A DNA stretch of 64,000 nt from an uncultured Candidatus Saccharibacteria bacterium (GTDB lineage Bacteria > Patescibacteriota > Doudnabacteria > UBA920), in assembly GCA_964600695.1 (NCBI GenBank), contig CAZRKK010000001.1, forward strand, positions 63,043 to 127,042, in the 5' to 3' direction. The position numbers and the translations under genes are program-made. The notes under the pieces were generated by a model, which was not told where the DNA came from, did no database searches, and saw only the letters and a program-made list of their open reading frames with translations. Shown in pieces: positions 4,562 to 52,800 of the stretch (positions are counted from its first letter, which is position 1; every line of letters starts with the position of its first letter).

Positions 4562-4645
4562 TTGCTAAAAACAGCCTTTGCCTGAGCCTAAAGTTATAGT
4601 AGAATAATTCAAGAATGGTAATATTGAGTGGAAAGTATCAAATTT

Positions 4646-5278
4646 ATGGCTATATTTAAAAAATCTGAACCAGCTCCTAAACCAATTGGTAAGTTTATTG
4701 TTATAGAAGGGTCTGGGAGTACAGACAAAAATACTCAGGTTGAACTTCTAGCAAAGACCCTGGGTAGTTATGATTATGACGGGATGGTTTTTGACTTTCC
4801 TCAATATTCATCAGTCTCTGCCGAAATGTTGACTAATTACTCAGAAGGTAAGTATGGCGATCTAAACCCCGAAGCCACTTCAATACTTTTTGCGCTCGAT
4901 AGATTCGATGCTGGTTTTGATATTCGACAACACCTTTCTGACGGTAAAATTGTTTTAGCTAACCGTTACACGAGCTCCAGTGCAGCCCATCAAGGATCGA
5001 AAATATTTGATCGCGCTGATAGAATAAAATTTTATAAATGGTTAGACAACTTAGAACATTCAATTTTTAATATTCCAAAACCTGACCTCACTATTATCTT
5101 ACACAGCAGTCCAGACAAAAGTGAAGCCGACACAGCTTATACCGAAATTGCCAGCCTGTTTCCTAATACTAAACTAGTAGAGTGTTCCGAACAGGGAGTA
5201 ATTCTTTCTGCCCAAGAAATTCATGCTAAAGTCTGGGAATTAGTACGGAGGATGGTTTTACGCAACAATTCTTTTTAA
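4646..5278 (+). CDS. thymidylate kinase-like protein with degenerate P-loop
   Basis: GKFIVIEGSGSTDKNTQ aligns with the Tmk motif GKFIVIEGLEGAGKST. LANRYTSSSAAHQG matches the Tmk DRYxxSSxAYQG lid motif. Walker A, however, reads G-S-G-S-T-D-K-N-T, so the Gly that normally precedes the Lys is an Asp. Confidence 0.6.
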   Translation: MAIFKKSEPAPKPIGKFIVIEGSGSTDKNTQVELLAKTLGSYDYDGMVFDFPQYSSVSAEMLTNYSEGKYGDLNPEATSILFALDRFDAGFDIRQHLSDGKIVLANRYTSSSAAHQGSKIFDRADRIKFYKWLDNLEHSIFNIPKPDLTIILHSSPDKSEADTAYTEIASLFPNTKLVECSEQGVILSAQEIHAKVWELVRRMVLRNNSF

Positions 5279-5316
5279 TACCTGTATAAATATTCCAAGG
5301 AGGAATGATACTTTAT

Positions 5317-5901
5317 ATGCTAAGTATAATTGCTGCGCGAGCAGCTAATAACGTGATTGGTAACAACAATGAACTACCATGGGAATTACCAGAGGACCTA
5401 AAATGGTTTAAAGCAAAAACCGAAAAACACCCAGTAATCATGGGTCTGAATACTTTCTTTTCTATCCTAGCTAGACTCAAAAGACCACTACCAAATCGAC
5501 CCAATTTTATTCTGAGTGGAAAGAAACCATCAGAAATTATCGAACTGATAGAAAGTAATCCATTGTACGGAATACCCAATTTTGAGCAAAGCGTGTTTTC
5601 TCAGACTACTCATTTCCACAATTCTTTAGAGTCAGCAATCCTTGATGTCGAAATTCTGAACACCGAAGTCTTCGTTATCGGAGGAGCTCGAGTTTACCAA
5701 GAAGCCCTACCTTATGCTTCGAGAATGTACCTAACAGAAATTCAACAAGAATTTAATGGTGATGTATTTTTTCCAACATTTAACCAAAGCGAATGGCGTC
5801 TCATTCCAAATCTTGAGGATAATAGAGTGAGAACGGTCAATAACATCGATTATTACTTTGCAACCTATTTTCGAAACTGGCTTAAACAAAAGGCTGCCTA
5901 A
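5317..5901 (+). CDS. folA: dihydrofolate reductase
   Basis: MLSIIAARAANNVIGNNNELPWELPEDLKWFKAKT...PVIMG...VFVIGGARVYQEALPYASRMYLTEI...GDVFFP are the canonical DHFR motifs. Confidence 0.85.
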   Translation: MLSIIAARAANNVIGNNNELPWELPEDLKWFKAKTEKHPVIMGLNTFFSILARLKRPLPNRPNFILSGKKPSEIIELIESNPLYGIPNFEQSVFSQTTHFHNSLESAILDVEILNTEVFVIGGARVYQEALPYASRMYLTEIQQEFNGDVFFPTFNQSEWRLIPNLEDNRVRTVNNIDYYFATYFRNWLKQKAA

Positions 5902-8273: not shown

Positions 8274-9191
8274 ATGCGAGGATTAATTTCATTTTTTAGA
8301 ATCGTTAAAAGCGGTACTACTAATTTACGCCGCAACTTATGGCTCGCTGGAGCTTCTACTTTAGTAATGACAGTGACACTGATTATTTTGTCGGTGTTGA
8401 CTTTACTATTCATCATCACCAGCTATTCAGTAGCCTCTATTCAGCAAAGAGTTGATATTAGCGCCTATTTCAAGAGTGATGTTACCGAGGCTAAAGTTCT
8501 AACAATCCGGGATGAAATTAAGCAAGATTCCAGAATCAAAGAGATTAATTACGTTTCTTCAGATCAAGCCCAAGCAGCATTTAAAGAAAAACATAAAGGT
8601 GACCAATTAATAATCGACTCCTTAGGCGAACTTACAGAAAATCCTTTCCCAGCAACTTTGCAAATCAAAGCAACTAATTTGGAAGATTTTCCTGCTATAG
8701 CTGAATCACTCAACAGCGACAAGTACAAGAGTGTAATTCAAGAGGTAAACTTCGAAGACAACAGAGTTATTATCGAAAGACTAAACTCCTTATTAAAATT
8801 TATTATTACCTTTGGTTCGGTTCTAATGGTCGTGTTCTGTTTAATTGCAATTTTGGTAATGTTTAACACGATTGCTCTAACAATTTATAATCGCCGTGAG
8901 GAAGTCGAAATTATGAGACTTGTAGGTGCTACAAACTGGTATATCCGTGGTCCTTTTATTGTCGAAGCCTTCACATATAGTATTATCGCTGCCATTATCA
9001 CCAGCGCCTTACTAATACCGATCTATTTCAACATGCTTCCCAAGATCAGTAACTATCTTACCCCAGGAGCTAATATATTCAACGGTAATGTCACTGTATT
9101 CCTAGGTGTGATTGCTATTCAATTAGGTATCGCCTTTGTACTAAGCACAATCTCAAGCTTATTAGCCATGAGAAAGTACTTACGCATCTAG
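8274..9191 (+). CDS. ftsX: cell-division permease FtsX
   Basis: 305 aa with an N-terminal TM segment, a periplasmic domain, and three C-terminal TM segments (FtsX topology), immediately after ftsE. Confidence 0.85.
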   Translation: MRGLISFFRIVKSGTTNLRRNLWLAGASTLVMTVTLIILSVLTLLFIITSYSVASIQQRVDISAYFKSDVTEAKVLTIRDEIKQDSRIKEINYVSSDQAQAAFKEKHKGDQLIIDSLGELTENPFPATLQIKATNLEDFPAIAESLNSDKYKSVIQEVNFEDNRVIIERLNSLLKFIITFGSVLMVVFCLIAILVMFNTIALTIYNRREEVEIMRLVGATNWYIRGPFIVEAFTYSIIAAIITSALLIPIYFNMLPKISNYLTPGANIFNGNVTVFLGVIAIQLGIAFVLSTISSLLAMRKYLRI

Positions 9192-9208
9192 AGATATCCA
9201 CAGTAAGA

Positions 9209-9236
9209 TTGACATTTCTCAAATTTCGTGTATAAT
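9209..9236 (+). promoter_or_regulatory. consensus sigma70 promoter TTGACA-N16-TATAAT upstream of rplI
   Basis: TTGACA at 9209-9214 and TATAAT at 9231-9236. A hairpin with a long T-tract lies immediately downstream at about 9252-9285. Confidence 0.5.
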
Positions 9237-9251
9237 AAGAAAGAGCCAAAA

Positions 9252-9285
9252 CTCTCGGAAGAGGGTTTTTTATTTTTTTATAACT
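9252..9285 (+). terminator. hairpin plus T-rich tract (AACTCTC-GGAA-GAGGGTT then TTTTTTATTTTTTTAT): ftsX terminator or rplI leader attenuator
   Basis: 7-bp stem including a G-U pair, followed by a T-rich run of 14 or more nt. Confidence 0.5.
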
Positions 9286-9305
9286 AAAAGCTTAAAAACA
9301 ATCAC

Positions 9306-9752
9306 ATGAAAGTCATACTAATAAAGGACGTACCCAAGGTTGGTCGAAGCGGCGAAATTAAAGAAGTTAACGCTGGTTTTGCTACCAATTTTTTAATTAA
9401 AAAAGGTTTAGCTAAGTTAGCAACAGCTGATGCCCAAAAGGACCTAGAAAAAGGTAAGAAAGAATTAACCGCTAAAAAACAAAAAGAGTTAGATAAATTG
9501 CATCTAGCCAAAAAAGAACTGGAACGCAGAACCTTCACAGTAAAAATCAAAACAGGTGATAAAGGGCAAATCTTTGGAGGGGTTCACGAAAAAGATATTG
9601 CCTCTGCAATATTCCAGAAAACAAAAATACAGCTAGATAAATCACAAATTGGAGCTAACAAAGGAATAAAAGAGTTAGGGGAACATATTATAAGCATTAA
9701 GCTAGGGCAGGGAATAACTGCAAATACTAAAATTAATATAGAAAGTCTATGA
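9306..9752 (+). CDS. rplI: 50S ribosomal protein L9
   Basis: MKVILIKDVPKVGRSGEIKEVNAGFATNFLIKKGLA... is the L9 N-domain. The length is 148 aa. Confidence 0.9.
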   Translation: MKVILIKDVPKVGRSGEIKEVNAGFATNFLIKKGLAKLATADAQKDLEKGKKELTAKKQKELDKLHLAKKELERRTFTVKIKTGDKGQIFGGVHEKDIASAIFQKTKIQLDKSQIGANKGIKELGEHIISIKLGQGITANTKINIESL

Positions 9753-10564
9753 TCGAATCAAAAAAATTAGTTGTGCCATTAATTATTTTAATTGTTTTAG
9801 TCCTGCTTTATATCGGAAGCATGGTTCTTAAGACTAAAACTGAAACAGAGACCACAACAAACCAAACTAATCAACAAGATACGATAAAAGATGAATCAAA
9901 TGTAAACGAAGAACCGAAGAATGAAACTTTAAAATTTAAATACGAACTGGTGAGCTTCTATAATGGTGGGAATCCAGAACCTAACCAGAGCTATGATGGT
10001 CAAATCATCCAGACTGACATTATGACTGGCAAAAAAACTACAGTCGTAAAAAGCATTAAATCTGCTTATCCAGCGTTAAAAGAAAATCAGTACAAAAGCT
10101 TTATTCAACTTAATCAATCCACTACCAAGCCTTACCTATACTTAGGAATAGTTTACTATGCCGGAGACGCTCCAATTGGTGGAATTGTTCGGTATGATGG
10201 TGATGCTAACAAGTTTACAGAATTAAAGATTAGCAAGAACTTTAATAGTTTCACTAGCACTGCAAGTAAAGAAAGTGCTTATGCTGCTAGTATTTATAAC
10301 ATTAATGATGGTGATGATACACGATCCCTATTTTTGCTAGATTTTGATGAAGATGCTGTTAAAAGTTTAGCAACATTACCAAGCAATGAAACTTTTAATT
10401 TATGTGAGAAAGTTGGTTGTTTGATGCCATCAGCTCCAGAAATAGAATGGTTATCCGGAGATACTTTTAGAATATCTATCTTTGATCCAGAAAAAGTTGT
10501 GAAAGACAAAAATGGTAACGAAACACAAAAACTTATTGAAACTCGCAAATTTATAATTAAATAG
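9749..10564 (+). CDS. hypothetical secreted or membrane-anchored protein
   Basis: 271 aa with an N-terminal TM/signal-anchor (LVVPLIILIVLVLLYIGSMVL), then a Thr/Asn-rich linker and a beta-rich body. It overlaps the rplI stop by 4 nt. Confidence 0.5.
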   Translation: MIESKKLVVPLIILIVLVLLYIGSMVLKTKTETETTTNQTNQQDTIKDESNVNEEPKNETLKFKYELVSFYNGGNPEPNQSYDGQIIQTDIMTGKKTTVVKSIKSAYPALKENQYKSFIQLNQSTTKPYLYLGIVYYAGDAPIGGIVRYDGDANKFTELKISKNFNSFTSTASKESAYAASIYNINDGDDTRSLFLLDFDEDAVKSLATLPSNETFNLCEKVGCLMPSAPEIEWLSGDTFRISIFDPEKVVKDKNGNETQKLIETRKFIIK

Positions 10565-10577
10565 ACTGAAGTAACTC

Positions 10578-12287
10578 ATGTCATACCAACTCAAAACAAG
10601 AAAAGCTAAAAAGTTAAATACAAAATTCATCTTTGTCTCTGGTGGGGTTATCTCTGGAGTAGGAAAAGGTGTGACGACTTCATCTATAGCCGCACTATTA
10701 CAGTCTAGAGGTTACATTGTTGCTCCAGTTAAATGTGACGCCTATTTAAATGTTGATGCAGGGACTATCCGCCCTCAAGAGCACGGCGAAGTTTTCGTCA
10801 CAGACGATGGCATGGAAACCGATCAAGACTTAGGAAACTACGAACGTTTTTTAAATATTGATCTGTCTAAAGCTAACTATGTAACTAATGGTCAATTGTT
10901 TCAAACTATAATTCAGAAGGAAAGAAATTTTGAATATGACGGTGAAGACGTCGAAGTCGCTCTGCATGTTCCAGAAGAAATTATTAATAGATTAGAACAA
11001 GCGGCTCGAGCTCTTAAAGCTGACTTTGTAATTTGTGAAATTGGCGGCACAGTGGGTGAGTATCAAAACATTTTGTTTATAGAAGCTAATCGAATTATGA
11101 AGTACCGTGACGGTCGCGACACTGCCCATGTGCACGTGGGTTATTTACCAACTCCACCAAGTATCGGTGAAATGAAGTCAAAGCCTACACAAAACTCTGT
11201 GAAGCAATTAATTTCTTCCGGTATTCAACCAGACTTCTTAGTAGCGCGAGCCGAAGGACAATTAGATGATCGTCGTAAAGAAACATTAGCTTGGACTACA
11301 AATATTCCTGTTGAGCATATTATTTCTGCACCTAATGTAGATACAATTTACCGAGTACCAAGTAACTTTGATAAAGAAGGATTTACAGACCAACTGCTGG
11401 AGCACTTTGATATGCCTAACAAAAAGCGCGACCTTAGAAAGTGGAACAACTTTGTTACGAAAATAACAAGAGTTCAGAATTCTAATAAAACTGTGAATGT
11501 TGCTGTTGTTGGTAAATACTTTGATACGGGTGATTTTAAATTGTCGGATGTTTATGTTTCGGTAATCGAAGCTTTAAAGCATGGTTGTTGGGCAAATAAT
11601 ACCAATGTAAAATTAGAATGGATATCTAGTAACACCATAGAAAAGCAGGGTGCCAAAAAAATCCTAGCTGGCTATGATGGAATTTGTGTTCCAGGTGGAT
11701 TTGGAAGTCGGGGAGTAGAAGGTATTATTCAAGCTATCGAATATGCCCGAAAACAAAAAGTTCCTTACCTTGGTTTATGTTACGGAATGCAATTAGCAAC
11801 AATCGAATTTGCTCGCAATGTGGTTCGTTTAAAAACCGCTCACACTACTGAGGTTGATCCTAAAACTCGTCATGCGGTAATTCATATTATGCCAGAACAA
11901 GAAAAGTTACTGCTTGCTCGTGAATATGGTGCAACTATGCGCTTGGGTGCATGGGATTGTGTTTTAGAAAAAGGAACCAAAACAGAGCGCGCTTATGCTA
12001 AAGCTGGTTGGGTAAATCCAAATGGTCGTGGTAAAAATAAGAACACTATTTCGGAGCGTCATCGCCACCGTTATGAATTTAATAATGAATACCGTGAACG
12101 TTTAGAAGCTAAAGGTTTAATCGTTTCTGGTACTACTCCAGACGGCCAACTTGTGGAGATTATAGAATTAAAAGACCATCCATTCTTTGTGGGAACCCAA
12201 TTCCACCCAGAATTTAAATCTCGACCCCTAGACCCACATCCCTTGTTTGTGGAATTTGTTCGTGCTATCCTAAAGCAACAAAAATAG
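10578..12287 (+). CDS. pyrG: CTP synthase
   Basis: N-terminal synthetase motif KFIFVSGGVISGVGKG and a C-terminal class-I glutamine amidotransferase domain (GICVPGGFGSRG...LGLCYGMQL). Confidence 0.92.
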   Translation: MSYQLKTRKAKKLNTKFIFVSGGVISGVGKGVTTSSIAALLQSRGYIVAPVKCDAYLNVDAGTIRPQEHGEVFVTDDGMETDQDLGNYERFLNIDLSKANYVTNGQLFQTIIQKERNFEYDGEDVEVALHVPEEIINRLEQAARALKADFVICEIGGTVGEYQNILFIEANRIMKYRDGRDTAHVHVGYLPTPPSIGEMKSKPTQNSVKQLISSGIQPDFLVARAEGQLDDRRKETLAWTTNIPVEHIISAPNVDTIYRVPSNFDKEGFTDQLLEHFDMPNKKRDLRKWNNFVTKITRVQNSNKTVNVAVVGKYFDTGDFKLSDVYVSVIEALKHGCWANNTNVKLEWISSNTIEKQGAKKILAGYDGICVPGGFGSRGVEGIIQAIEYARKQKVPYLGLCYGMQLATIEFARNVVRLKTAHTTEVDPKTRHAVIHIMPEQEKLLLAREYGATMRLGAWDCVLEKGTKTERAYAKAGWVNPNGRGKNKNTISERHRHRYEFNNEYRERLEAKGLIVSGTTPDGQLVEIIELKDHPFFVGTQFHPEFKSRPLDPHPLFVEFVRAILKQQK

Positions 12288-12652: not shown

Positions 12653-13942
12653 TTAATTCTTTTCAAAAATGATGATTTCTCTGGCGACGACTTGGTCTTT
12701 GCGATCATATATTGCCGTTCCACGATCCGTTAGTTTTAGGAAAGGCAGATTTGCAGCCAATTCGAGAGGAATCAAATCTATAAAATTATAGCCAATTTTC
12801 TTAATAAAGTCAAGGTTTTCTAGCTGAACATAAGTAGAGCCCTTTTTATAGGCAGGTAAGCACATTACGACTTTTCCACCGCTCGGCAAAAACTTGAGAA
12901 AATCTTGAAATGCACCTGTATATAATTTAGCTAGGTCATCAAAGTTCTTTTTAATATCAGCCTGAGAAGGGAACTCTCCGTACATTGGCCCAAGATAACC
13001 TTCGGTTACAACGGCGTCAACTTGCTTGAATGCATCTACCTTTTTTAGATGCTCAACTACCTTAGAAACTTCTTTGACGTCCGCAACTTCAATATGAAAC
13101 TTGCCTTTAGGAATCTTGTAACGATTTCGGAACCACTCTAAGTTTTTCTCACTACCTGCGATAGCAATTGGGTTAATGTCTGTGCCAAGAACTCTGTAAC
13201 CTTGTAGTACACCTTCTTGAACAATCGTTCCTATCCCACATAGCGGGTCGAGTAGGGTACTGCCAGCTTTTTGGCCAGCTAAGTTGATCATAATCTGAGC
13301 AACTTTTGGAGGAATCATACCTTGCTTTTCATCACGTACAGGACGCTGATAATCTCGACGACCATAATCTTCGAAGTCTTGAACAACTAAAGTTTTAGCG
13401 ACATACAATTTAGTTGGTGCTGCCAAGATACAAATCTCGGCACCTTTTTCTAATAGGTGATTGTGAGTTACTACAACAGAAGCAAGTGCAAGGCCATTAA
13501 ATTTTGGTAGCACTAATCGAATACTAGAACCACCTTCTTGCATGCCTCGCTTGATGAACATTCCTAAACGTTTTGGTTCTTCAAAAGCTTTAATACTTTC
13601 ATCAAGTAAGTAGACACTAATACCAAATTGAATTTTTCCTTTAGCAGAACCAAGGAAGTCCTTCTTCAATTTACTAGGCTTGAAATAATTTTGTAATGCA
13701 AAGTTAATATAGTCTGTATCTTTCTTCTTGACCTCATTAATAACTTTTAGAATCTTAACTACTCCACCCAATTCTTTCTGAATTTTACGAAAATCTAATT
13801 CTTGATCTGTTTCTACAACTAAGACTTCATGAGACAAATCTAAAACCTTGAGTGTCCAATCATGATTTTGAAAATAAAAAAACAGCTCAGCTAAAGAAAG
13901 TGTATAAACCCGTCCTAAAACAAAAGCATATTTGTGTGCCAT
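12653..13942 (-). CDS. class I SAM-dependent methyltransferase, Trm11/RlmL-like putative RNA methyltransferase with atypical motif IV
   Basis: SAM-binding motif I is LLDPLCGIGTIVQEG. The expected (D/N)PPY motif IV reads VDAVVTEGYLG. The N-terminal approximately 150 aa may be a substrate-binding (THUMP-like) domain. Confidence 0.5.
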   Translation of the reverse strand: MAHKYAFVLGRVYTLSLAELFFYFQNHDWTLKVLDLSHEVLVVETDQELDFRKIQKELGGVVKILKVINEVKKKDTDYINFALQNYFKPSKLKKDFLGSAKGKIQFGISVYLLDESIKAFEEPKRLGMFIKRGMQEGGSSIRLVLPKFNGLALASVVVTHNHLLEKGAEICILAAPTKLYVAKTLVVQDFEDYGRRDYQRPVRDEKQGMIPPKVAQIMINLAGQKAGSTLLDPLCGIGTIVQEGVLQGYRVLGTDINPIAIAGSEKNLEWFRNRYKIPKGKFHIEVADVKEVSKVVEHLKKVDAFKQVDAVVTEGYLGPMYGEFPSQADIKKNFDDLAKLYTGAFQDFLKFLPSGGKVVMCLPAYKKGSTYVQLENLDFIKKIGYNFIDLIPLELAANLPFLKLTDRGTAIYDRKDQVVAREIIIFEKN

Positions 13943-16813: not shown

Positions 16814-16845
16814 TAAAAAATCCCTTGCCTAGCAAGGGTTTTTTG
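16814..16845 (+). terminator. rho-independent terminator CCCTTGC-CTA-GCAAGGG followed by TTTTTT
   Basis: Perfect 7-bp stem and a T6 run after the desulfurase gene. Confidence 0.7.
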
Positions 16846-16894
16846 TAGTATATTAAGCAGTGATTTAAACAATTTTTTGGAGGAAAAATATATA

Positions 16895-17839
16895 ATGACT
16901 GAACAAATCGCGCCTGATATGACAGGCAAAATTAGTGTTGTTGACTATTTACCGTTTGAACAAAGACTGCCAGATAATCAGTATCAAAAGCTACTTTTGA
17001 ATATTAGTTGGAACGGTGAAAATTCTGAATCATTCCATGCTGAGAAATCTAAATCTCTTATGGCTCCGAACCCGTTACGCTATAATTTACGGAATGGGAT
17101 ACCTCTCGGAACAGAACGAAGCATGAAGCAAATTGGCATGTCTGCTGTTGCAGAAATTTTAGAATTTGCTAAAGGTGCAACTACCCAAGATGAATTAGTC
17201 GCTGGGGGAGTAAGCCCACGCTTCTGGGGTGACTTTGTCACTGCAAAAAAATGCGCAGACTTTGGTCTCGAAGCAGGGGACTTAGGACCTGGTTCTTACG
17301 GTGGCGCTTTTGGACATTTTCCAACAGCAGAAGGAAAAGAAGTGAATCAGTTCAAAAATGTGATCGCACAAATCAAAAGAGCTCCACATTTAAGAACACA
17401 CTTTATATCTCCGTGGATTCCACAATACTGTGTCTCTGGAGAAAACGCAGAACGTAAAGTAGTGGTTGCACCATGTCATGGTTGGGTTCACATCCGCGTG
17501 ATGAACAACGAACTTCATCTGCATATGTTCCAAAGGTCGGGTGATGTACCAATCGGAGTACCATCGAATATTTTTCAATACTCAATTCTCACTCTAGCCT
17601 TAGCCTATGTTCTGGACATGAAAGCTTCTCACTACTATCACTCCTTTTCTGACGCTCACTTTTATGAAAATCAAACGGAAGCGATTGCAGAAATAGTAAG
17701 CAGAATCCCGACTCGATTTCCAACTGTCTACTTAAGTAAAGATACTCCGAAAGATTTATTTCAAATCAGACCGGAACACTTCATTATAGAAGACTATCAC
17801 CCAAATCCCGCCATCAAAGGCATACCGGTGGCAATATAG
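16895..17839 (+). CDS. thyA: thymidylate synthase family protein (ThyA-like, divergent N-terminus)
   Basis: The C-terminal half aligns convincingly with E. coli ThyA. Matching stretches are VVAPCHGWVHIRV (catalytic Cys), QRSGDVPIGVPSNIFQYSILTLALA, SDAHFYENQ, and a tail ending HPNPAIKGIPVAI that parallels DPHPGIKAPVAI. The DRTGTGT motif and the ELLWFL folate-site Trp residues are not conserved. A GGAGG RBS precedes the ATG at 16895. Confidence 0.75.
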   Translation: MTEQIAPDMTGKISVVDYLPFEQRLPDNQYQKLLLNISWNGENSESFHAEKSKSLMAPNPLRYNLRNGIPLGTERSMKQIGMSAVAEILEFAKGATTQDELVAGGVSPRFWGDFVTAKKCADFGLEAGDLGPGSYGGAFGHFPTAEGKEVNQFKNVIAQIKRAPHLRTHFISPWIPQYCVSGENAERKVVVAPCHGWVHIRVMNNELHLHMFQRSGDVPIGVPSNIFQYSILTLALAYVLDMKASHYYHSFSDAHFYENQTEAIAEIVSRIPTRFPTVYLSKDTPKDLFQIRPEHFIIEDYHPNPAIKGIPVAI

Positions 17840-17861: not shown

Positions 17862-18341
17862 ATGGATACTAAAGAAACTGAACCTGTAGATGTAAACAAC
17901 GCGTTTACCCCAGAATACAAAAAAGTTCTTGAAGAGATCAACAAGGATGGAGCTTGCCCAGCACCTTTCTGTCTCGAGACAGCTCCGTATCATAAACATC
18001 CTAGAGTCTTTAGCTTTGTATATTGGAAAGTTACTAGAAATAGTTTCAACTACCAAAACGCCAAGCATGCCTTTCTAATTGTTTTAAATAGACATGAAGA
18101 AGACTTCATGAATATCAAACCAGAGGAGTGGGCCGATCTGGGATTTGCGATTCGCACTTTGGTATATTACTTCAAACTCGAAGGCTACACCTTAGTCTGG
18201 AGAATGGGGGAGAAGTCTCACACCGGAGCTAGCGTCAGCCATCTTCATGCTCACCTAATCTGTGGCGGCCCAAGACCAGACAAGGCCCCTCAAGACATGG
18301 ACGAGTCAGAAGTAATTAAAGCACTTGTTGGGTTTGCATAA
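17862..18341 (+). CDS. HIT-family nucleotide hydrolase (Hint-like)
   Basis: An N-terminal CPAPFC zinc-knuckle-like motif, the HAFLIVLNRHEE stretch, and the histidine triad HLHAHLICGG. Confidence 0.75.
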   Translation: MDTKETEPVDVNNAFTPEYKKVLEEINKDGACPAPFCLETAPYHKHPRVFSFVYWKVTRNSFNYQNAKHAFLIVLNRHEEDFMNIKPEEWADLGFAIRTLVYYFKLEGYTLVWRMGEKSHTGASVSHLHAHLICGGPRPDKAPQDMDESEVIKALVGFA

Positions 18342-18401: not shown

Positions 18402-19232
18402 TTATTTAACTTGGATAATCTCTATGCCATGTTTTCGAAAAGTTTCTTGGGCCTCTAGAGCAGAGTATCCTTCTGAGTAGTAAACTTTAGCAATGCCGGC
18501 TGTTGCCACATCGTAAGCACAGCCTGGGCATGGAAAAGTTGATACATAGATAGAAGCACCTTTTGTCGAAACGCCATTGGCAGCTGCTCTGGAGATTAAA
18601 ACTTTCTCAGCATGATGAGCACTAGATATTTCTAAGTGCTCTCCTGGTTGAAAATTATTTCTTGGGTCACCCAAAGCATACAGACTTTGTTGAGCTGGCA
18701 TATGCTTGTTATAAGCAACATCCAGAACCTTTCCGTCTTTTACCAAAACTACACCAACTTGTCGCCACCAATCCGGACTCTTTTGGGCAGTGGATTTTGC
18801 TAAGGCCATAAATTCAAAATCTAATTGCTCCAGATCTATTTGACGATCCGATTCAACAGGATTCTGACTAAAGGTCTTAGGCATATCGTACCGTAAGAAG
18901 ACAGACTCAAAAGTTATATTCCGAGTAGAGAAGTACTTTTCGGCTACATGCCTACAAATATCTTCGTCTGGCATGGTGATCTTATACCCTCGATCAAGTT
19001 GCTGTAAGCGCTGTTGGCCAACTACAGCCACCTTAGAGAATATTTGCAATGAAGATATAACAGTCCTCATAAGATTCGGGTCGAGTGCTCGAATCTCGCG
19101 AGTTAGCTGTTCAAGCTCACCGTAGACATCGCTATCCAATAAATATAATTTACTTCGGCGATGCCTGTTAAAAAAATTTATATACCCAGAGTGGAGGATT
19201 GGTACAAAGGCAACGACAATTTTATTGTTCAT
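18402..19232 (-). CDS. deoxycytidylate/cytidine deaminase domain protein with N-terminal extension of unknown function
   Basis: The C-terminal part carries zinc-ligand motifs HAEKVLI and STFPCPGCAYDVATAGIAKVYY, like dCMP deaminase/ComEB. The N-terminal approximately 130 aa are unassigned. Confidence 0.65.
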   Translation of the reverse strand: MNNKIVVAFVPILHSGYINFFNRHRRSKLYLLDSDVYGELEQLTREIRALDPNLMRTVISSLQIFSKVAVVGQQRLQQLDRGYKITMPDEDICRHVAEKYFSTRNITFESVFLRYDMPKTFSQNPVESDRQIDLEQLDFEFMALAKSTAQKSPDWWRQVGVVLVKDGKVLDVAYNKHMPAQQSLYALGDPRNNFQPGEHLEISSAHHAEKVLISRAAANGVSTKGASIYVSTFPCPGCAYDVATAGIAKVYYSEGYSALEAQETFRKHGIEIIQVK

Positions 19233-19834
19233 AGCTTTGATTCAATCTCATCAAAGGTTGAATTAACAACCTTGAGGATTTTCTCCCGTGATTTTTGAGT
19301 ACCCTTGATCATCAGATCTCGAACTCGAGCTGTGGTAGAAATTTTGTCAGGCGGTGCTTGGGGCTCCAAGAATATAATCTCCGCAGAATATTTTTTGTAC
19401 TCCGTAAGATTGTCTGGATTCATGTCTTTAGTAGACTTAGAAAACACCAACTTGTCTGGCTGAACAGCCTTAAGGACAGAAATAAAATCTTCACCGACAG
19501 AAGTGACAATATCAACCGCTCGTAAGTACGAAAGTATTCTCGAACGTTCCTCGAATGGGACAATTGGACGATCAATATCATCCGTTGCTTTGCGGCTCCT
19601 AGTAAGTTCGTCTGTATCAGAACCAACTATTAGTAAGTCGACACCATCCTTGGCTTTTTCTATATAAGCCATATGGCCGAGGTGGATCAAATCCCAAACG
19701 CCGCTGACAAAACCAACTTTAGCTTTCGGATGCAACTTTCGATATATTGCTAGGAAGTCTGCCAAGACCGTATAGTCCGCTATAAACCTTTCCTCGTAAC
19801 AAGATTGACTGGTATCGAATATGCCATTCAACAT
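19229..19834 (-). CDS. cytidylyltransferase-like nucleotidyltransferase (HxGH)
   Basis: GFVSGVWDLIHLGHMAY is the (T/H)xGH Rossmann nucleotidyltransferase motif found in TagD, RfaE-II and PPAT-like enzymes. It overlaps the downstream deaminase gene by 4 nt. Confidence 0.6.
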   Translation of the reverse strand: MLNGIFDTSQSCYEERFIADYTVLADFLAIYRKLHPKAKVGFVSGVWDLIHLGHMAYIEKAKDGVDLLIVGSDTDELTRSRKATDDIDRPIVPFEERSRILSYLRAVDIVTSVGEDFISVLKAVQPDKLVFSKSTKDMNPDNLTEYKKYSAEIIFLEPQAPPDKISTTARVRDLMIKGTQKSREKILKVVNSTFDEIESKL

Positions 19835-26865: not shown

Positions 26866-28206
26866 TTATGCGTTTTTTTCAAGCGCTTCCGTTAGCTCAG
26901 CGACGACTTTTTTTAGATGATCTTGACGTGGACCAGAAACTACGGATTGAGCTTTATCTAAATCGACCCATTGCCATCGACTAAAAACTTTTGGATCTAA
27001 AATTATTTCTGAATCTTGACCAGTAAATCTAAAAAAGGCTGTTTGTTGCTTTTGACCTCGAAACAATCTTTTAGTACTGAACAAACCTCGAATACCGTTT
27101 GGCCAGTCGAAAGTATTAATATGCTTAGCGGTTCCCAAGTATTGCACTGAAGAAATGTTGACCTCTTCTTTTAATTCTCGCAGCGCAGAAGCTTGTAAAT
27201 CCTCACCAGGTTTAACACCTCCCTGTGGAGGAAGCCATTCACCTTGTGGGTTATATCTTTGCGCATAACCAACCTTAGAAATTTTGTTTGGGTTATTCTC
27301 GCATAATAAAATTTGATTTTGATTGTTGATGACAATAATCGAAACATTATTACGGTAGCCATAACTAGAAAAGACTTTGTACCGTACTAAAGAAAGGATT
27401 AAACCCCAAGTAGCTCGATAAATTCTAGGTAATCGACTAGGTTGTGTTACTAAACGAAACAACCATTCCAACCCAATTGATCGAATCCAAACAGGTGGTG
27501 GAGTCTTAAAACCAGAAGCATAATCAAAAGTCCCTCCGACCCCCATCGCAACTGTAACAGGTAAATTTTTTAAATGATTGGCAATCCATTGCTCTTGCTT
27601 AGGTTGGCCATAAGCTAAAAATAAAAGATCCGGTTTCGCCTGCTGAATATCCTCAAGTAAGGACAAGTTGTTCCAGTTTTTTCTAGACAATCCCACTATC
27701 TGCAATCGAGGATATCTTTCTTTAAGTAACTCTGCAGTTTTTTCTGCAGAATCACTGCGGTGATTTACAAAATAGACAGTCTTGTTATTTTCAGATGCCA
27801 ATTTGATTAAATCAAAAAACACATCTGCTCCAGTAATCTTCTCTGGTATATTTTTATACAAATAACTAGGTGTGAGCAAAATCCGAGCCCCAGAAACTAC
27901 AACATGCGCCCAAGTCTCTATGATCTTGCCCCAAAAACCAGTCGAACGAAGGGGAATGTCTAAGTATCGCTCTGCCCACATTATTGCTATACCATCTGCC
28001 AAAGCAATGTCGGCAGAATTAAATAAATCTCGCAATGAAGACTCAGTCAAACTTGCGTACAAAAACTCCGAATTAGGTGTAGTAATAAAAGTTTGCTGTT
28101 TTGATTCCAGCAAACTTTTGACTTCCGACAAAAATTGAGATTTTGTAATTGCGGAAATATTTAAATTAGCAACTAAAACTTTATGAATCATAAATTTATT
28201 TGTCAC
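26866..28206 (-). CDS. fusion protein: WecB/TagA/CpsF-family glycosyltransferase (N) + NUDIX hydrolase (C)
   Basis: The N-terminal half carries ADGIAIMWA, VGLSRK, LLFLAYGQPKQEQW and GLEWLFRLVTQPSRLPRIYR (PF03808-like). The C-terminal 150 aa carry the Nudix box GGVKPGEDLQASALRELKEEVN. Confidence 0.7.
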   Translation of the reverse strand: MTNKFMIHKVLVANLNISAITKSQFLSEVKSLLESKQQTFITTPNSEFLYASLTESSLRDLFNSADIALADGIAIMWAERYLDIPLRSTGFWGKIIETWAHVVVSGARILLTPSYLYKNIPEKITGADVFFDLIKLASENNKTVYFVNHRSDSAEKTAELLKERYPRLQIVGLSRKNWNNLSLLEDIQQAKPDLLFLAYGQPKQEQWIANHLKNLPVTVAMGVGGTFDYASGFKTPPPVWIRSIGLEWLFRLVTQPSRLPRIYRATWGLILSLVRYKVFSSYGYRNNVSIIVINNQNQILLCENNPNKISKVGYAQRYNPQGEWLPPQGGVKPGEDLQASALRELKEEVNISSVQYLGTAKHINTFDWPNGIRGLFSTKRLFRGQKQQTAFFRFTGQDSEIILDPKVFSRWQWVDLDKAQSVVSGPRQDHLKKVVAELTEALEKNA

Positions 28207-40491: not shown

Positions 40492-42000
40492 CTATTTTGA
40501 TTTAATTGCTTTCGACAGGCTCTCTATAAATGGGTAAAATACGGAATCTTTCTCGAAGAAAGGCACGACTTGCCGAATCTGATTATGTATCTGCTGGGTG
40601 CCGAAACCAGGCTTAAGTGGGTTTCTGATATCTACAGCCTGAGCTGCACAGATTAACTCTATAGTTATGATTTGGTAAACCATTTCTATAATATCTCGAC
40701 ACTTTCTAGAAGCTGTTGTGGCAAAGCTTACATAATCTTCCTGGTTAGCAGAAGTTGGTATGGAATCAATAACTACTGGATGAGCAAGTACCTTGATTTC
40801 TGCAAGCATTGCAGCTGCAGTATATTGCAAAATCATAAACCCACTATTCAAACCAGTTTGATGGGTTCCAATCAAATATGGAGGAAGACCATTATTGTGA
40901 TTAGAATCCATAAACTTAGCAGTACGTCGTTCAGAAATATTTGCAAGCTCAGTGAGTGCTATAGACAATGAATCCATAACGAGACCTATTGGCTCACCAT
41001 GGAAGTTACCACCGGATATAATATCTCCACTTTCTGGAAAGACTAAAGGATTGTCTGTAACTGAATTTAACTCCACTTCTACAACAGAGGTAACATACTC
41101 GAGTATTTGTTTGACTGGTCCATGAACCTGAGGGGAACATCTTAGTGAGTAAGAATCTTGAACACTATTGTATCCATTATCTGGACCAACTAGCTGACTC
41201 CCTTCGCACAATTCTCTAATTATTCTAGCTGTTTCAATTTGTCCTTTATGTGGGCGAATTTCATGGACCCTTTTATCGAAAGCTGTTAAGGTTCCTCGCA
41301 TACCTTCTAAACTTAAAGCTAAGCTCTTATCAGACCAGTGAATGATATTTTTCGCGTCGTATACATTCAGACTCGCAACAGCAGTTAAAAAAGCAGTGCC
41401 GTTATTTAAAGCCAGGCCTTCCTTTGCTTGCAACTTTAATGGAGTAAAGTCGTAAGCATACATCGCATCTTTTGTGAGTTTTCTTTGACCATTCACAATT
41501 AGCTCCCCTTCACCCATGATTACTAATGCTAAATGGGAAAGCGGTGCTAAATCTCCACTAGCCCCACAGGAACCACGCTCAGGAATATATGGATAAATTC
41601 CCTTATTTAAAATTTCCAAAAACTTTTCTACTAATTCTAATCGTACGCCTGAGTGGCCGTTTGCCAATGAGTTAGCCCGAATTAAAATAGCAGCCCTTAC
41701 CTCAGCTTCCGAAAAGGGTGACCCAGTACCCGCAGCATGACTACGGATTAAATTTTCTTGTAATTCTTCAAGCTGGGTTTGATCTATGCTTTTGTCCTTT
41801 AAACTACCAAAGCCGGTATTCAGACCATATACGATCTTACCGGCTTTGATTATGTCTTCTACAACTTTACGCGATTTTAAAATAGCAGTCTTTGCCTCTA
41901 CAGACAAAACTATATGATAATGCTTATGATGAGCAATGTCGTGAACCAAATCGATTGACAGGCTCTTGCCGTCTATCTCTATGGTTTTTACGTGGTCCAT
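40492..42000 (-). CDS. MIO-dependent aromatic amino-acid ammonia-lyase/aminomutase family (histidine ammonia-lyase-like)
   Basis: The MIO-forming tripeptide lies within GSCGASGDLAPLSHLA. YGLNTGFG is present. The selectivity positions read S-H (IRSHAAGTG) as in HutH. Confidence 0.8.
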   Translation of the reverse strand: MDHVKTIEIDGKSLSIDLVHDIAHHKHYHIVLSVEAKTAILKSRKVVEDIIKAGKIVYGLNTGFGSLKDKSIDQTQLEELQENLIRSHAAGTGSPFSEAEVRAAILIRANSLANGHSGVRLELVEKFLEILNKGIYPYIPERGSCGASGDLAPLSHLALVIMGEGELIVNGQRKLTKDAMYAYDFTPLKLQAKEGLALNNGTAFLTAVASLNVYDAKNIIHWSDKSLALSLEGMRGTLTAFDKRVHEIRPHKGQIETARIIRELCEGSQLVGPDNGYNSVQDSYSLRCSPQVHGPVKQILEYVTSVVEVELNSVTDNPLVFPESGDIISGGNFHGEPIGLVMDSLSIALTELANISERRTAKFMDSNHNNGLPPYLIGTHQTGLNSGFMILQYTAAAMLAEIKVLAHPVVIDSIPTSANQEDYVSFATTASRKCRDIIEMVYQIITIELICAAQAVDIRNPLKPGFGTQQIHNQIRQVVPFFEKDSVFYPFIESLSKAIKSK

Positions 42001-49813: not shown

Positions 49814-52800
49814 TTAGTTGTTTTGTTTAGCTATGTATTTTGGTAAAAGAATAATACCAAGAGTAGCTAGCATAACCATTACCACATAAGCAGGAGTTCC
49901 TGTTCGAGGTAACTCTGTAGTAGCACCAAGTACAGTTCCTGTTGTTGGGGTACTTGGGATATTTGTACTATCACCAAGGACTCGTCCAACTGTAGGGTTT
50001 GGTACTTCTGGAGCTGGCCCGCCGCCAGTGCTTCCACCACCGCCAGTGCTTCCACCACCGCCGCCTCGATAGATATTCCCAAAGTCTAGACCAGAAGCAT
50101 CACCAGAATAATTTGGATAAACATCAACTGATGCATTGGCTGTTTTAAACATAAAGTCTGTCCAAGAAGAATCTTTATTAGATTCTAGAGTAACTGCTTC
50201 GCAAGGCCAAATTGCACCACCAATAGCAATGTTGTATTCAGTCAAAACAGGTTCTGTCTCTGCCCAATTAGATTGTAAGACTTCTCTAACTGAGTAACAA
50301 CCAGCTACTAAACCAGTAAATTGATAATTCCCGTTGCTATCAGATATAGTTGAGGTTTCTTCGTTATTTAGAGTATTACTTCCATCCTGGTCAAGGTACA
50401 CAACCCAACCTTCAAGCTCATCTTCTACTTCACCATCATGATCACCATTATTGCTGTTATTATCATGATAAACTGTACCGCTTATCTTGAATCCACCATT
50501 ACCACCACCATCTTCATCATCACGGTTATAGAAGTTTTGACCAGTTTCAATTGAATCAGTAACTAATACTTGATTAGCGCCGTTGTCTGCTGGGGTCATT
50601 TGTGTCCAACCTTCTTGACCAACTTCGCGAACGAAATATGTTCCTGTAGGTAAATCTGCAAATGAATAATTACCATCTTTGTCGGTTTTATCATATGGCT
50701 CATTATCATCAAGTTCACCATTTTTATTTAGGTCCAGATAAATTACCCATCCACCTAATGTGATTGGTGTTAACTCTTCATTGCCAGACTGATATTTATA
50801 CTTTGTTCCTGAGATTCCATTTCCACAAGTTGGGAGTTCTGGCTCATCATTAATAATCTGGGTAAAGATACTAAATAATGATTTACGAACTTTTTCCTCT
50901 TGTCGTTGTACACAAACTTGATGGTTACCAAAATCATTATTGATACTATCTGCGTTAGCAGGGACTACATTTAGACTACCTTCTGGAGCACTTTGTTGCC
51001 ATCCAGTTTGCATACCTTCAACAATAGCAAGATTACCGGTTAGATCAGTCACATCAAAACTATAATTACCGTTGGAATCTGTTGTTGTTGAAGATAAGAC
51101 TTCGAAAATTTCTACATCTAGAGTTCCAGTATTATTACCTGGAGCAATATCATTAATTGCGAAATTAACAGCAGCCCCAGTACCAGTTAATGTTTTCCAA
51201 TAAATATGAGAGCTAGTGTATGGACCCCAGTAAGAAGAGTTGCCATCTATTTGCAGGTCCAATAAGTCTGGACCATATATTTCATAATTCTGAACTAAGT
51301 CAGTCCAATCAGGGTTTAAATTTCGAGATGAATATTGAGCATCGGATAGAATTCCATCGTTAGCGTCATAAGTTCCGGAAGCTTTTACTAAATAGGTAGC
51401 GCCATTGGTTAAAGGCAAGCTATCAACACCTGTAACACTAGTTGAATCAACTTCATACTCTGCTACTTTTTTAGTTAAGTAGATAGTCCAATCTTGAATT
51501 CCATTTTCCCCTTGTTCTCTTTCACCGTCACCATCAAGATCATTCCACTTTGTTCCTGTAGCATGATAAGTAGGCTCTCCTTGGCCAGTTTCATCACCAC
51601 AGTAATTAAAGTCTAGGTTGTAAATTAATCCGGTTGGATTGTTGGTTGGTTGGTATGCCCAGTTCTTTACAGCAAATTTTAGAACATGTGTACCTGGTGT
51701 TAGTGCTAATGGAGAGCTATCAGAAACTACGGCATAATCATTGCTAAATCCTACCTGAACTCCATCTAAGAAAGCAGTTACTTCATTGTCAGCGGTAAAA
51801 TGTAAGATTGCAGGAGAAATGCTTGTTGCCCCGGCAGGAATAGTAAAGGTATGGCTATACAGTCTCCATGTATCAATAGAACCATCCCCACCTGCGCCTG
51901 GTGGATTTGTTGGTTGAGCTGCGCTATTGCTGACCCATACCCCGGACCCCTCTGTTATATCTGGATCATTTTGCGGCCCATCCCATGCACCTGGATGACC
52001 AGTAGGACCAGCTAATACAGCTGGAGCATCAATACCTAATGGGTAATTAGCTTCATCACTTAAATCACTCGGTGCTGTATTTTCCTTTAGACCTTCAAAC
52101 TTAGTAAACATACCACTAGCGATAGCTGGGTCTTGCTCCACACAAGGAGTTAGTGACCCAATATTATACGCGATACAGTAGATATGCTCTGGTTGATTAT
52201 TACCTAAGCTAATATACTCTAGATTATCACCATTTAAAGCGTCGTTAAAACATCGAATTGCGGCAAATTCGTAACCATATTTTTCTTGTTCACTCACCCA
52301 CATTTGCCCGTTAACAATTGCTGACTGCATGGCTGGGTTAAGCGCAGAATCTTCTCCAGAAATAGGAGTTACGAATTCACCATCTTCGGTAGCACCTAGA
52401 ACTTGTGCATCATCACTTGTAAAACTACTCTCATTGGAAACGTTAAACTTCCACCCATCGGCACGAACACAATTAGAGTCCTTGCCAGGGATTTCACTTG
52501 GATTTACCAGACCATTCACTAAAGGTGATGGTAAGAACATCCCGTTATTATAGTTATTAAAGTAAACATAATTACCATTGGTTTCATCAGCAGAGCTTCC
52601 AGACTCGTTCCCTGCAACATCACCATATTCTTCACAGACGACTTTGATTAAATGAAGTTTAGGAATCGGTCGATCACAACCATTTTCACTACATTGGTTC
52701 ACGAGTGTAAATGATTCATTTTGAGTATCAACCATTTTAGTTTCATTCTTTCCAGAAATATTGGTCCAGCCATCCTTCATGATTTCATCTAGTTTATATG

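Follow-up and report, generated by a model that had tools for sequence, protein, structure and literature searches.

A lineage-wide ThyA subfamily of Patescibacteria, probably thymidylate synthases with a weakened or reorganised phosphate clamp

The window analyzed here is a stretch of 64,000 nucleotides from an uncultured Candidatus Saccharibacteria bacterium (assembly GCA_964600695.1, contig CAZRKK010000001.1, positions 63,043 to 127,042), and the gene under study occupies positions 16895 to 17839 of its forward strand (314 aa, ATG start, stop codon included). With a probability of about 0.8, this gene encodes a functional folate-dependent thymidylate synthase (TS), converting deoxyuridine monophosphate (dUMP) and 5,10-methylene-tetrahydrofolate (THF) into deoxythymidine monophosphate (dTMP) and dihydrofolate (DHF), in which the phosphate clamp is weakened or reorganised. 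Its product (the query) belongs to a Patescibacteria-type subfamily of TS, named ThyA* here and defined by the changes K48R and R127T (E. coli ThyA numbering), a variable residue 21 and a conserved N-terminal extension. Few enzymes have been studied as thoroughly as TS, whose four phosphate-binding arginines generally pass for invariant. What is new is the natural double loss of these "invariant" arginines in a large clade, together with a conserved module of ThyA*, a HIT-like protein, a nucleotidyltransferase and a deaminase. The gene very probably has a mostly ordinary function, as the TS of a subfamily that is lineage-wide and has not been described before. The loss of two of four arginines across a lineage, with all else kept, represents a natural experiment on the dispensability of the phosphate clamp. 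Patescibacteria are unable to make nucleotides de novo, and the supply of dTMP is central to their host dependence; ThyA* also bears on the selectivity of antifolates or TS inhibitors against these bacteria.

The product of the open reading frame (ORF) is a full-length ThyA-family protein. PF00303 (Thymidylat_synt) matches residues 28-309 (E=8e-52, 176.4 bits, cut-off 24.3) and TIGR03284 is passed with 143.6 bits vs. a cut-off of 108.35; the narrower PRK01827 equivalog models all stay under their cut-offs. An earlier, sequence-only reading had placed the protein in the ThyA family, which is borne out, and had aligned its C-terminal two-thirds with E. coli ThyA. That part does align, but the likeness is not limited to it: the alignment runs from residue 29 through the C-terminal residue 314 (30% identity, E=1e-37). 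An AF2 model built on 61 sequences reaches pLDDT 94.7 and pTM 0.93, and its top 50 Foldseek matches are all TS structures, with TM-scores of 0.92-0.95 normalised to E. coli TS. ThyX, the flavin-dependent TS of unrelated fold, is excluded as the identity of the query, and its motif RHRxxSxxxxSxR occurs by motif search in no open frame of the window, which also has no second ThyA. The 1.87 Mb of DNA flanking related loci likewise contain no second ThyA or ThyX motif, which is weak evidence as it covers loci only.

Nearly the whole catalytic apparatus is retained. The catalytic APCHG motif (17468..17482, +) provides Cys194 and His195, equivalent to Cys146 and His147, and Val191 occupies the Leu143 position. 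FQRSGD contributes Arg214 (Arg166), Ser215 (Ser167) and Asp217 (Asp169), PSNIF contributes Asn225 (Asn177), DAHFY contributes His255 and Tyr257 (His207 and Tyr209), and the C-terminal tail PNPAIKGIPVAI, which ends in GIPVAI, aligns with GIKAPVAI of E. coli. All the motifs named in the sequence-only reading (PCH, QRSGD, PSNIF, DAHFY and the tail) are therefore present. Conservation was judged on the best 120 of 2313 matches at E<=1e-10 from 5.8 billion proteins, all at least 48% identical to the query and about 300 aa long; the named ones are "thymidylate synthase" of Pacebacteria, Moraniibacteria or the "Patescibacteria group." Cys194, Arg214, Glu87 (Glu58), Tyr135 (Tyr94), His195 and Asp217 each occur in 120/120 of these homologs. 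Twelve residues of E. coli ThyA lie within 6 Å of dUMP C5 (PMC13326640). Eight of them (W80, Y94, C146, H147, Q165, D169, G173, N177) are identical in the query and in 120/120 homologs, and S167 is identical in the query and in 113/120. The A142 and L143 positions are Val in 113/120 homologs each (Ile, Leu or Thr in the rest at 143), and the C168 position is Gly, Ala or Ser. With canonical ThyA (E. coli, EC 2.1.1.45) the query shares the fold, coupling to dihydrofolate reductase (DHFR), the closing tail and, besides the catalytic Cys, the residues Glu58, Tyr94, His147, Gln165, Arg166, Ser167, Asp169, Asn177, His207, Tyr209 and Trp80.

The differences from canonical ThyA are concentrated in the phosphate site. 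The loop equivalent to DRTGTGT (17021..17053, +) reads NSESFHAEKSK, with ESFHAEK in place of the motif and Phe47 (17033-17035) at the Arg21 position. In RTHF (17393..17404, +), Arg167 corresponds to Arg126' and is kept, whereas Thr168 stands in place of Arg127' (LRTH). Two of the four phosphate-binding arginines are present (Arg167 and Arg214), and the remnant of the clamp consists of Arg214, Arg167' and Ser215. Both losses had been recognized correctly in the sequence-only reading, in which Arg21 was described as replaced and only one of the Arg126/127 pair as present. Its further claim that the folate-contact residues Trp80/83 are missing from ELLWFL reflects a numbering error: counted along the sequence, ELLWFL of E. 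coli contains Trp61, and Trp80 and Trp83 lie in IWDEW. This stretch is FWGDF in the query, where Trp80 is kept as Trp111 (as in 120/120 homologs) and Trp83 is conservatively replaced by Phe114 (Trp in 90/120 homologs); Trp61 is lost. The query also differs from canonical ThyA in the change of Lys48 to Arg, in a eukaryote-like insert after Trp83 and in an additional N-terminal extension of 25 residues carrying a near-invariant Arg. Candidates for compensation at the phosphate site are this Arg24 and Arg75, Arg24 being too conserved to give a covariation signal.

These features belong to a subfamily and not to one gene. Thr replaces Arg127 in 120/120 of the close homologs, 80/80 of the genome loci and 61/67 of the metagenome loci, and the Lys48 position is Arg in 120/120 close homologs and in 60/61 copies from metagenome loci seeded on the HIT-like protein, all of which retain the catalytic residues. 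Position 21 behaves differently: among the 120 close homologs it is Gln in 93 and Phe in 15, with others including Arg in only 5, and across the subfamily it is Q, I, P, G, T or F, with Arg in about 7% of members, including that of Actinomadura. The surrounding loop takes different forms by sublineage (SQQG, SRQG, TPQG, PIHG and others). The Arg126 position is Arg or Lys (Lys in 38/120 homologs), and the Ser167 position is Ala in 7/120. The 25-residue N-terminal extension is conserved as YxPxxxRTPDxQY, its Arg being present in more than 90%. Among 1.84 billion cluster representatives searched exhaustively with HMMER, about 45 with the ThyA* signature were recovered at E=1e-85 to 1e-42, and canonical R21/K48/R126/R127 enzymes appeared only from about 1e-34. 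A neighbour-joining tree of 123 full-length sequences unites the sequences with R48 and T/S127 in one clade of 39 leaves, 5 of them with a variant residue 127; the other 84 sequences all fall outside it. ThyA* is a distinct monophyletic subfamily, and the loss of Arg21 and Arg127 is a trait of this subfamily rather than an oddity of a single gene. Because residue 21 is variable and still Arg in about 7% of members, it looks like a position under relaxed constraint and not a new fixed motif. This relaxation looks superimposed on the old, fixed R127T/K48R change.

The distribution was assessed in GTDB, scanned with one genome for each species, which gave 581 relatives; all genome-locus counts in this work use the best 80. 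Nearly all of these 80 are metagenome-assembled genomes of Patescibacteria, labelled Saccharibacteria, Paceibacterota, Uhrbacteria, Woesebacteria, Kaiserbacteria, Zambryskibacteria and others, and the nearest species-genome relative (92% identical) is labelled "uncultured Candidatus Saccharibacteria." Two cultured actinomycetes also carry ThyA*, Actinomadura spongiicola (48% identity) and Kineosporia babensis (47%). Judging from this sampling, ThyA* appears to be the usual ThyA of Patescibacteria (candidate phyla radiation bacteria), with sporadic occurrence in actinomycetes. The literature search returned no account of the ThyA residues of Patescibacteria or of a ThyA-HIT-cytidylyltransferase module.

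Substrate and product can be predicted from published determinants. At residue 177, Asp specifies a cytosine and Asn a uracil substrate; at residue 143, Asp or Glu leads to a hydroxymethyl and a bulky hydrophobic residue to a methyl product; and D169N together with N177D marks the 5-hydroxy-dCMP synthase of the RB69 gp48/DLP3 gp80 type (PMC13326640). Ala167 with Lys126' confers the ribose preference of MilA, Ser with Arg corresponds to deoxyribose, and His207/Tyr209 are the 3'-OH ligands (PMC5175136). At these switch positions the query has Asn177, Val143, Asp169 and Ser167/Arg126', and the C-terminal tail is present; Asp217 (169) and Asn225 (177) each occur in 120/120 homologs. All published specificity determinants read dUMP as the substrate and a methyl group as the product. 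Cys194 would attack C6 of dUMP, with proton transfers by Glu87 and Tyr135, while uracil would be chosen by Asn225 and the 3'-OH held by His255 and Tyr257. Trp111 and Val191, together with the C-terminal tail (...PVAI) as it closes, would seal the site, so that hydride transfer, and not hydration, would complete the reaction. The predicted consequence of the altered clamp is weaker or differently organised binding of the dUMP phosphate, probably with a higher Km, rather than a new substrate; enzymatic activity and substrate are themselves predictions, as is any compensating role of Arg75 or Arg24. A few rare cluster representatives carry Asp at the Asn177 position, both within the ThyA* clade (P0153, P0161) and outside it (P0175, P0215, P0229, P0254). 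By the published rule this would switch the substrate to a cytosine nucleotide, and these proteins are possibly dCMP methylases or hydroxymethylases of uncultured bacteria.

Precedents exist for part of the loss. The TS of Vibrio parahaemolyticus carries the changes R127' to G and K48 to R and is active with a raised Km; this natural loss of one phosphate arginine was presented as the first in 2018 (PMC6005164). The enzyme, from the VAAP clade, resembles the query as a natural active TS without an Arg127' equivalent and with Arg in place of Lys48, but differs in having Gly instead of Thr at 127', in keeping Arg21 and in lacking such an N-terminal extension (PMC6005164). The likeness would most simply be convergent. 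In Lactobacillus casei TS, the Arg179' position is permissive, with activity retained, according to replacement-set mutagenesis cited in PMC6005164. The L. casei mutant R179T, which has the same substitution as Thr168 of the query, has been crystallised (PDB 1bo7), as has R178T (1bo8). These are single laboratory mutants in a canonical background, whereas ThyA* represents a natural double loss fixed in a lineage. The four-arginine set is a conserved feature of TS and not strictly required, given that an active TS found in nature does without Arg127' and that substitution at position 179' of the L. casei enzyme is reported to be permissive. The Vibrio precedent, the permissive position 179' and the crystallised R179T mutant are among the grounds for the probability placed above on a genuine dUMP-to-dTMP synthase. 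Of the outcome named as refuting the sequence-only reading, namely close homologs that share the N-terminal features and are demonstrated TS, the first half holds: the homologs do share the features, and the closest enzyme with an assay is the Vibrio TS without Arg127 (PMC6005164).

Several points weigh against this interpretation. Among characterised TS, the literature searched contains none with a joint loss of two of the four phosphate arginines, and a full-text search found no assayed member of ThyA*. In canonical TS, Arg21 also connects the phosphate site to the closing C-terminus. Furthermore, the textbook pathway gives no reason for the strict linkage of ThyA* to the HIT-like protein and the nucleotidyltransferase, although these two accompany ThyA* no less closely than the deaminase does, over very divergent lineages and in an actinomycete too.

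The neighbouring genes are consistent with a dTMP pathway. A HIT-like protein gene (17862..18341, +, 159 aa) begins 22 nt downstream of ThyA*. Convergent to this pair lies an operon of a nucleotidyltransferase (19229..19834, -) and a two-domain dCMP deaminase (18402..19232, -, 276 aa), the start of which overlaps the nucleotidyltransferase gene by 4 nt; the two are translationally coupled. About 11 kb upstream of ThyA* are the genes for dTMP kinase (4628..5278, +), the consumer of the TS product (PF02223 E=2.9e-13; NF005923 82 bits, below cut-off), and for DHFR (5305..5901, +; PF00186 E=3.8e-45; NF008037 114 bits), which confirms the folA gene proposed in the sequence-only reading. CTP synthase PyrG (10578..12287, +, PF06418 E=5.7e-94) is an upstream step of the cytosine-to-thymine route and serves as context only. 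Deoxycytidine nucleotides would be supplied by CTP synthase and ribonucleotide reduction, and dUMP would come from the deaminase, plus dUTPase where present. ThyA* would then release dTMP and DHF, with THF regenerated by DHFR and dTMP passed on by dTMP kinase (Tmk). The coupling to DHFR is meaningful because only reductive methylation oxidises folate.

In the genome loci, the HIT-like gene lies directly downstream of ThyA* in 74/80, the dCMP deaminase is near it on the opposite strand in 68/80 and the nucleotidyltransferase in 66/80. DHFR is found within 10 kb in 43/80, often in the order ThyA-DHFR-HIT, dUTPase is nearby in 39/80 and dTMP kinase in 9/80; a Pacebacteria locus holds the complete gene set within 9 kb. 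The linkage also holds in reverse. When 80 metagenome loci were seeded on the HIT-like protein, ThyA* stood directly upstream in 71, and the remaining 9 all lie within 300 nt of a contig end, so that ThyA* is found in 71/71 loci where upstream room exists; the deaminase is present in 75/80. ThyA* is strictly linked to the HIT-like gene and to the nucleotidyltransferase and the nucleotidyltransferase-like dCMP deaminase, an association that is new here and suggests that the dTMP pathway of Patescibacteria includes two or three enzymes not yet characterised. In Pacebacteria (L002-L004, 13175-13927, +), a gene with an F420_ligase domain (CofE-like gamma-glutamyl ligase) lies immediately upstream of DHFR and overlaps it; its product might act on folate glutamate tails.

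The HIT-like protein scores 21.7 bits with PF01230, barely above the cut-off, and has distant HIT matches in the PDB. It carries the motifs CPAPFC ... TGASVSHLHAHLI, with HxHxHxx intact, and its subfamily follows the pattern CPAPFC ... WKVTRNSFNYQNA ... TGASVxHLHAHLI (loci L007-L166). This subfamily appears to be distinct and to be found only directly downstream of ThyA* or ThyA*-DHFR; its homologs are named "ATP adenylyltransferase" by JGI. The nucleotidyltransferase (PF01467 E=7e-12; TIGR02199 67.5 bits, below cut-off; PDB 5x9q E=1.4e-11) is closest to HldC/RfaE domain II and has an intact HLGH motif. The deaminase combines an N-terminal cytidylyltransferase-fold domain, in which HxGH has decayed to HSGY, with a C-terminal dCMP deaminase domain. 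PADLOC gives no defence match for ThyA*, the HIT-like protein or the nucleotidyltransferase, and only a partial match for the deaminase.

In Actinomadura spongiicola the whole cassette is present (L078, 8442-11888). ThyA, DHFR and HIT follow one another with overlapping stop and start codons, and the nucleotidyltransferase and deaminase, with all three domains, are fused in a single ORF of 469 aa (8442-9851, -). The cassette adjoins a type I restriction R subunit, a STAND-like/TPR ATPase and a "conflict-system" GT4. ThyA-DHFR-HIT failed the filter on third-position GC (GC3 >0.85) that the flanking genes passed, and the kilobase that holds it has about 65% GC vs. about 70% around it; this suggests horizontal transfer. 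In Kineosporia babensis (L085, 9968-10936), ThyA* has only a small dCMP deaminase nearby.

The linkage of ThyA* to its partner genes also supports a different substrate, an unlikely reading in which ThyA* methylates a uracil deoxynucleotide whose 5'-phosphate is substituted (a phosphodiester or phosphoramidate, dUMP-X) or differently presented. In the corresponding scheme, which is just as improbable, the nucleotidyltransferase would make a conjugate from an NTP or dNTP, the deaminase and ThyA* would act on it, and the HIT-like enzyme would free the dTMP moiety or pass it on. Two positive charges are gone from the clamp while Arg166, Arg126 and Ser167 are kept. HIT enzymes cleave or transfer conjugates of nucleoside monophosphates (NMP-X), and cytidylyltransferase-fold enzymes make them. 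The HIT-like protein and ThyA* are linked in both directions (74/80 and 71/71 loci with upstream room), the nucleotidyltransferase and deaminase show translational coupling and, in Actinomadura, fusion, the deaminase carries a second, degenerate nucleotidyltransferase domain, and the entire cassette recurs in a distant phylum. On the other hand, the same neighbourhoods also contain canonical dUMP producers (dUTPase in 39 of the 80 loci) and Tmk, which consumes dTMP, the loss of Arg127 and K48R already occur in a TS that uses plain dUMP, and residue 21 is variable and sometimes Arg, where a redesigned pocket predicts otherwise. We know of no pathway of this type. Similarly doubtful is the reading that ThyA*, the HIT-like protein, the nucleotidyltransferase, the deaminase and usually DHFR form one conserved, transferable thymidylate module, with the trimmed clamp of ThyA* as a sign of non-textbook handling of nucleotides. 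Such a module could carry out deamination and methylation on a nucleotidyl conjugate that the nucleotidyltransferase makes and the HIT-like protein resolves, or could channel from dCTP without free dCMP or dUMP; if true, Patescibacteria would have a novel way of making dTMP.

That the gene encodes a pyrimidine C5-hydroxymethylase or another C5-modifying paralog for modified bases (a dUMP or dCMP hydroxymethylase, a dCMP methylase or a 5-hydroxy-dCMP synthase) is very unlikely. Such enzymes belong to the same superfamily, the phosphate site of the query is atypical, and the rare clade members P0153 and P0161 have Asp at the Asn177 position. T4 gp42 and MilA/BcmA share with the query the superfamily and the first half of the mechanism. 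Unlike the query, they have Asp at 177, Asp or Glu at 143 and a short C-terminal tail or none; MilA also has Ala/Lys at 167/126. T4 dCMP hydroxymethylase keeps Arg123'/Arg124', has Asp at 177 and lacks the C-terminal tail (PMC6400193). Its Lys28 (VVDKTG) lies in a segment that is taken, on our own reading of a sequence not alignable to the query, as the equivalent of the DRTGTGT loop, so that gp42 would also be without Arg21. BLASTP detects no similarity between T4 gp42 and the query (E=6.4). Since gp42 keeps the Arg pair that is broken in the query, and in view of this lack of similarity, the pattern of loss in the query is not the hydroxymethylase pattern. A hydroxymethylase releases THF and so does not need DHFR, yet the gene is coupled to DHFR. 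Asn177, Val143, Asp169, the intact tail, the DHFR coupling and the lack of gp42 similarity are the grounds for rejecting a C5-modifying paralog; Asp217 and Asn225 argue against the 5-hydroxy-dCMP synthase type (D169N with N177D), and Ser215, Arg167 and Asn225 against a CMP hydroxymethylase of the MilA/BcmA type. Moreover, ThyA* is chromosomal and conserved throughout a phylum-level radiation, which sets it apart from phage or island genes, and it lacks the glycosyltransferase or kinase context typical of modified bases. A phage or defence origin was also rejected: no phage homolog exceeds 33% identity and the best ones are all annotated as TS, PADLOC is null for ThyA*, and the window is ordinary chromosome. 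The sequence-only reading had left the choice between pyrimidine hydroxymethylases or other paralogs and very divergent true TS; the determinants and the synteny with dTMP and DHFR genes favor the second over the first. Its caution about specificity was reasonable, yet finds no support in any known determinant.

Ribonucleotide specificity (UMP to 5-methyl-UMP, as in MilA/BcmA), for which Lys126 in 38/120 and Ala167 in 7/120 subfamily members, the positions of the MilA ribose preference, might be adduced, is extremely improbable and ruled out for the query by the deoxy-type pair Arg167 and Ser215, and the neighbouring genes all belong to deoxynucleotide metabolism.

The start of the ThyA* gene was assigned from the surrounding signals. 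A longer version of the ORF begins at a TTG at 16877 and shares the stop at 17839 (+). The ATG at 16895 is preferred because, as read from the sequence, a Shine-Dalgarno GGAGG (16880..16884, +) lies 10 nt upstream of it; the start is further supported by homologs that are alignable only from about residue 13-20 on. At the 3' end of the upstream cysteine-desulfurase-like gene there is a terminator-like hairpin with a T-run (16822..16848, +), overlapped by a -35/-10-like pair (16825-16854, +); both are consensus matches only. With these two elements upstream, ThyA-HIT therefore looks like a transcription unit of its own.

The remainder of the window is an ordinary small-genome chromosome with a GC content of 33-41% (2-kb windows), encoding NusG, a peptide chain release factor (PCRF/RF-1 domains), FtsEX, PyrG, GltX, HisS and RpoA. 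The aromatic amino acid lyase at 40492-42000 (-; PF00221, E=1.7e-188) is presumably an ammonia-lyase for histidine or phenylalanine, a catabolic enzyme unexpected in a reduced genome of Patescibacteria. The 1962-aa ORF at 49814-55702 (-) carries SpaA/SdrD-B/CarboxypepD_reg prealbumin-like domains close to the C-terminus; its product is probably a giant adhesin of the cell surface that may serve attachment to the host. In a 446-aa ORF (26866-28206, -), a WecG/TagA-type glycosyltransferase domain is fused to a NUDIX hydrolase domain. Finally, a 429-aa ORF at 12653-13942 (-) shows only a short RMKL-like/UPF0020 methyltransferase match (residues 204-252) and a weak match to N6_N4 DNA methylases.

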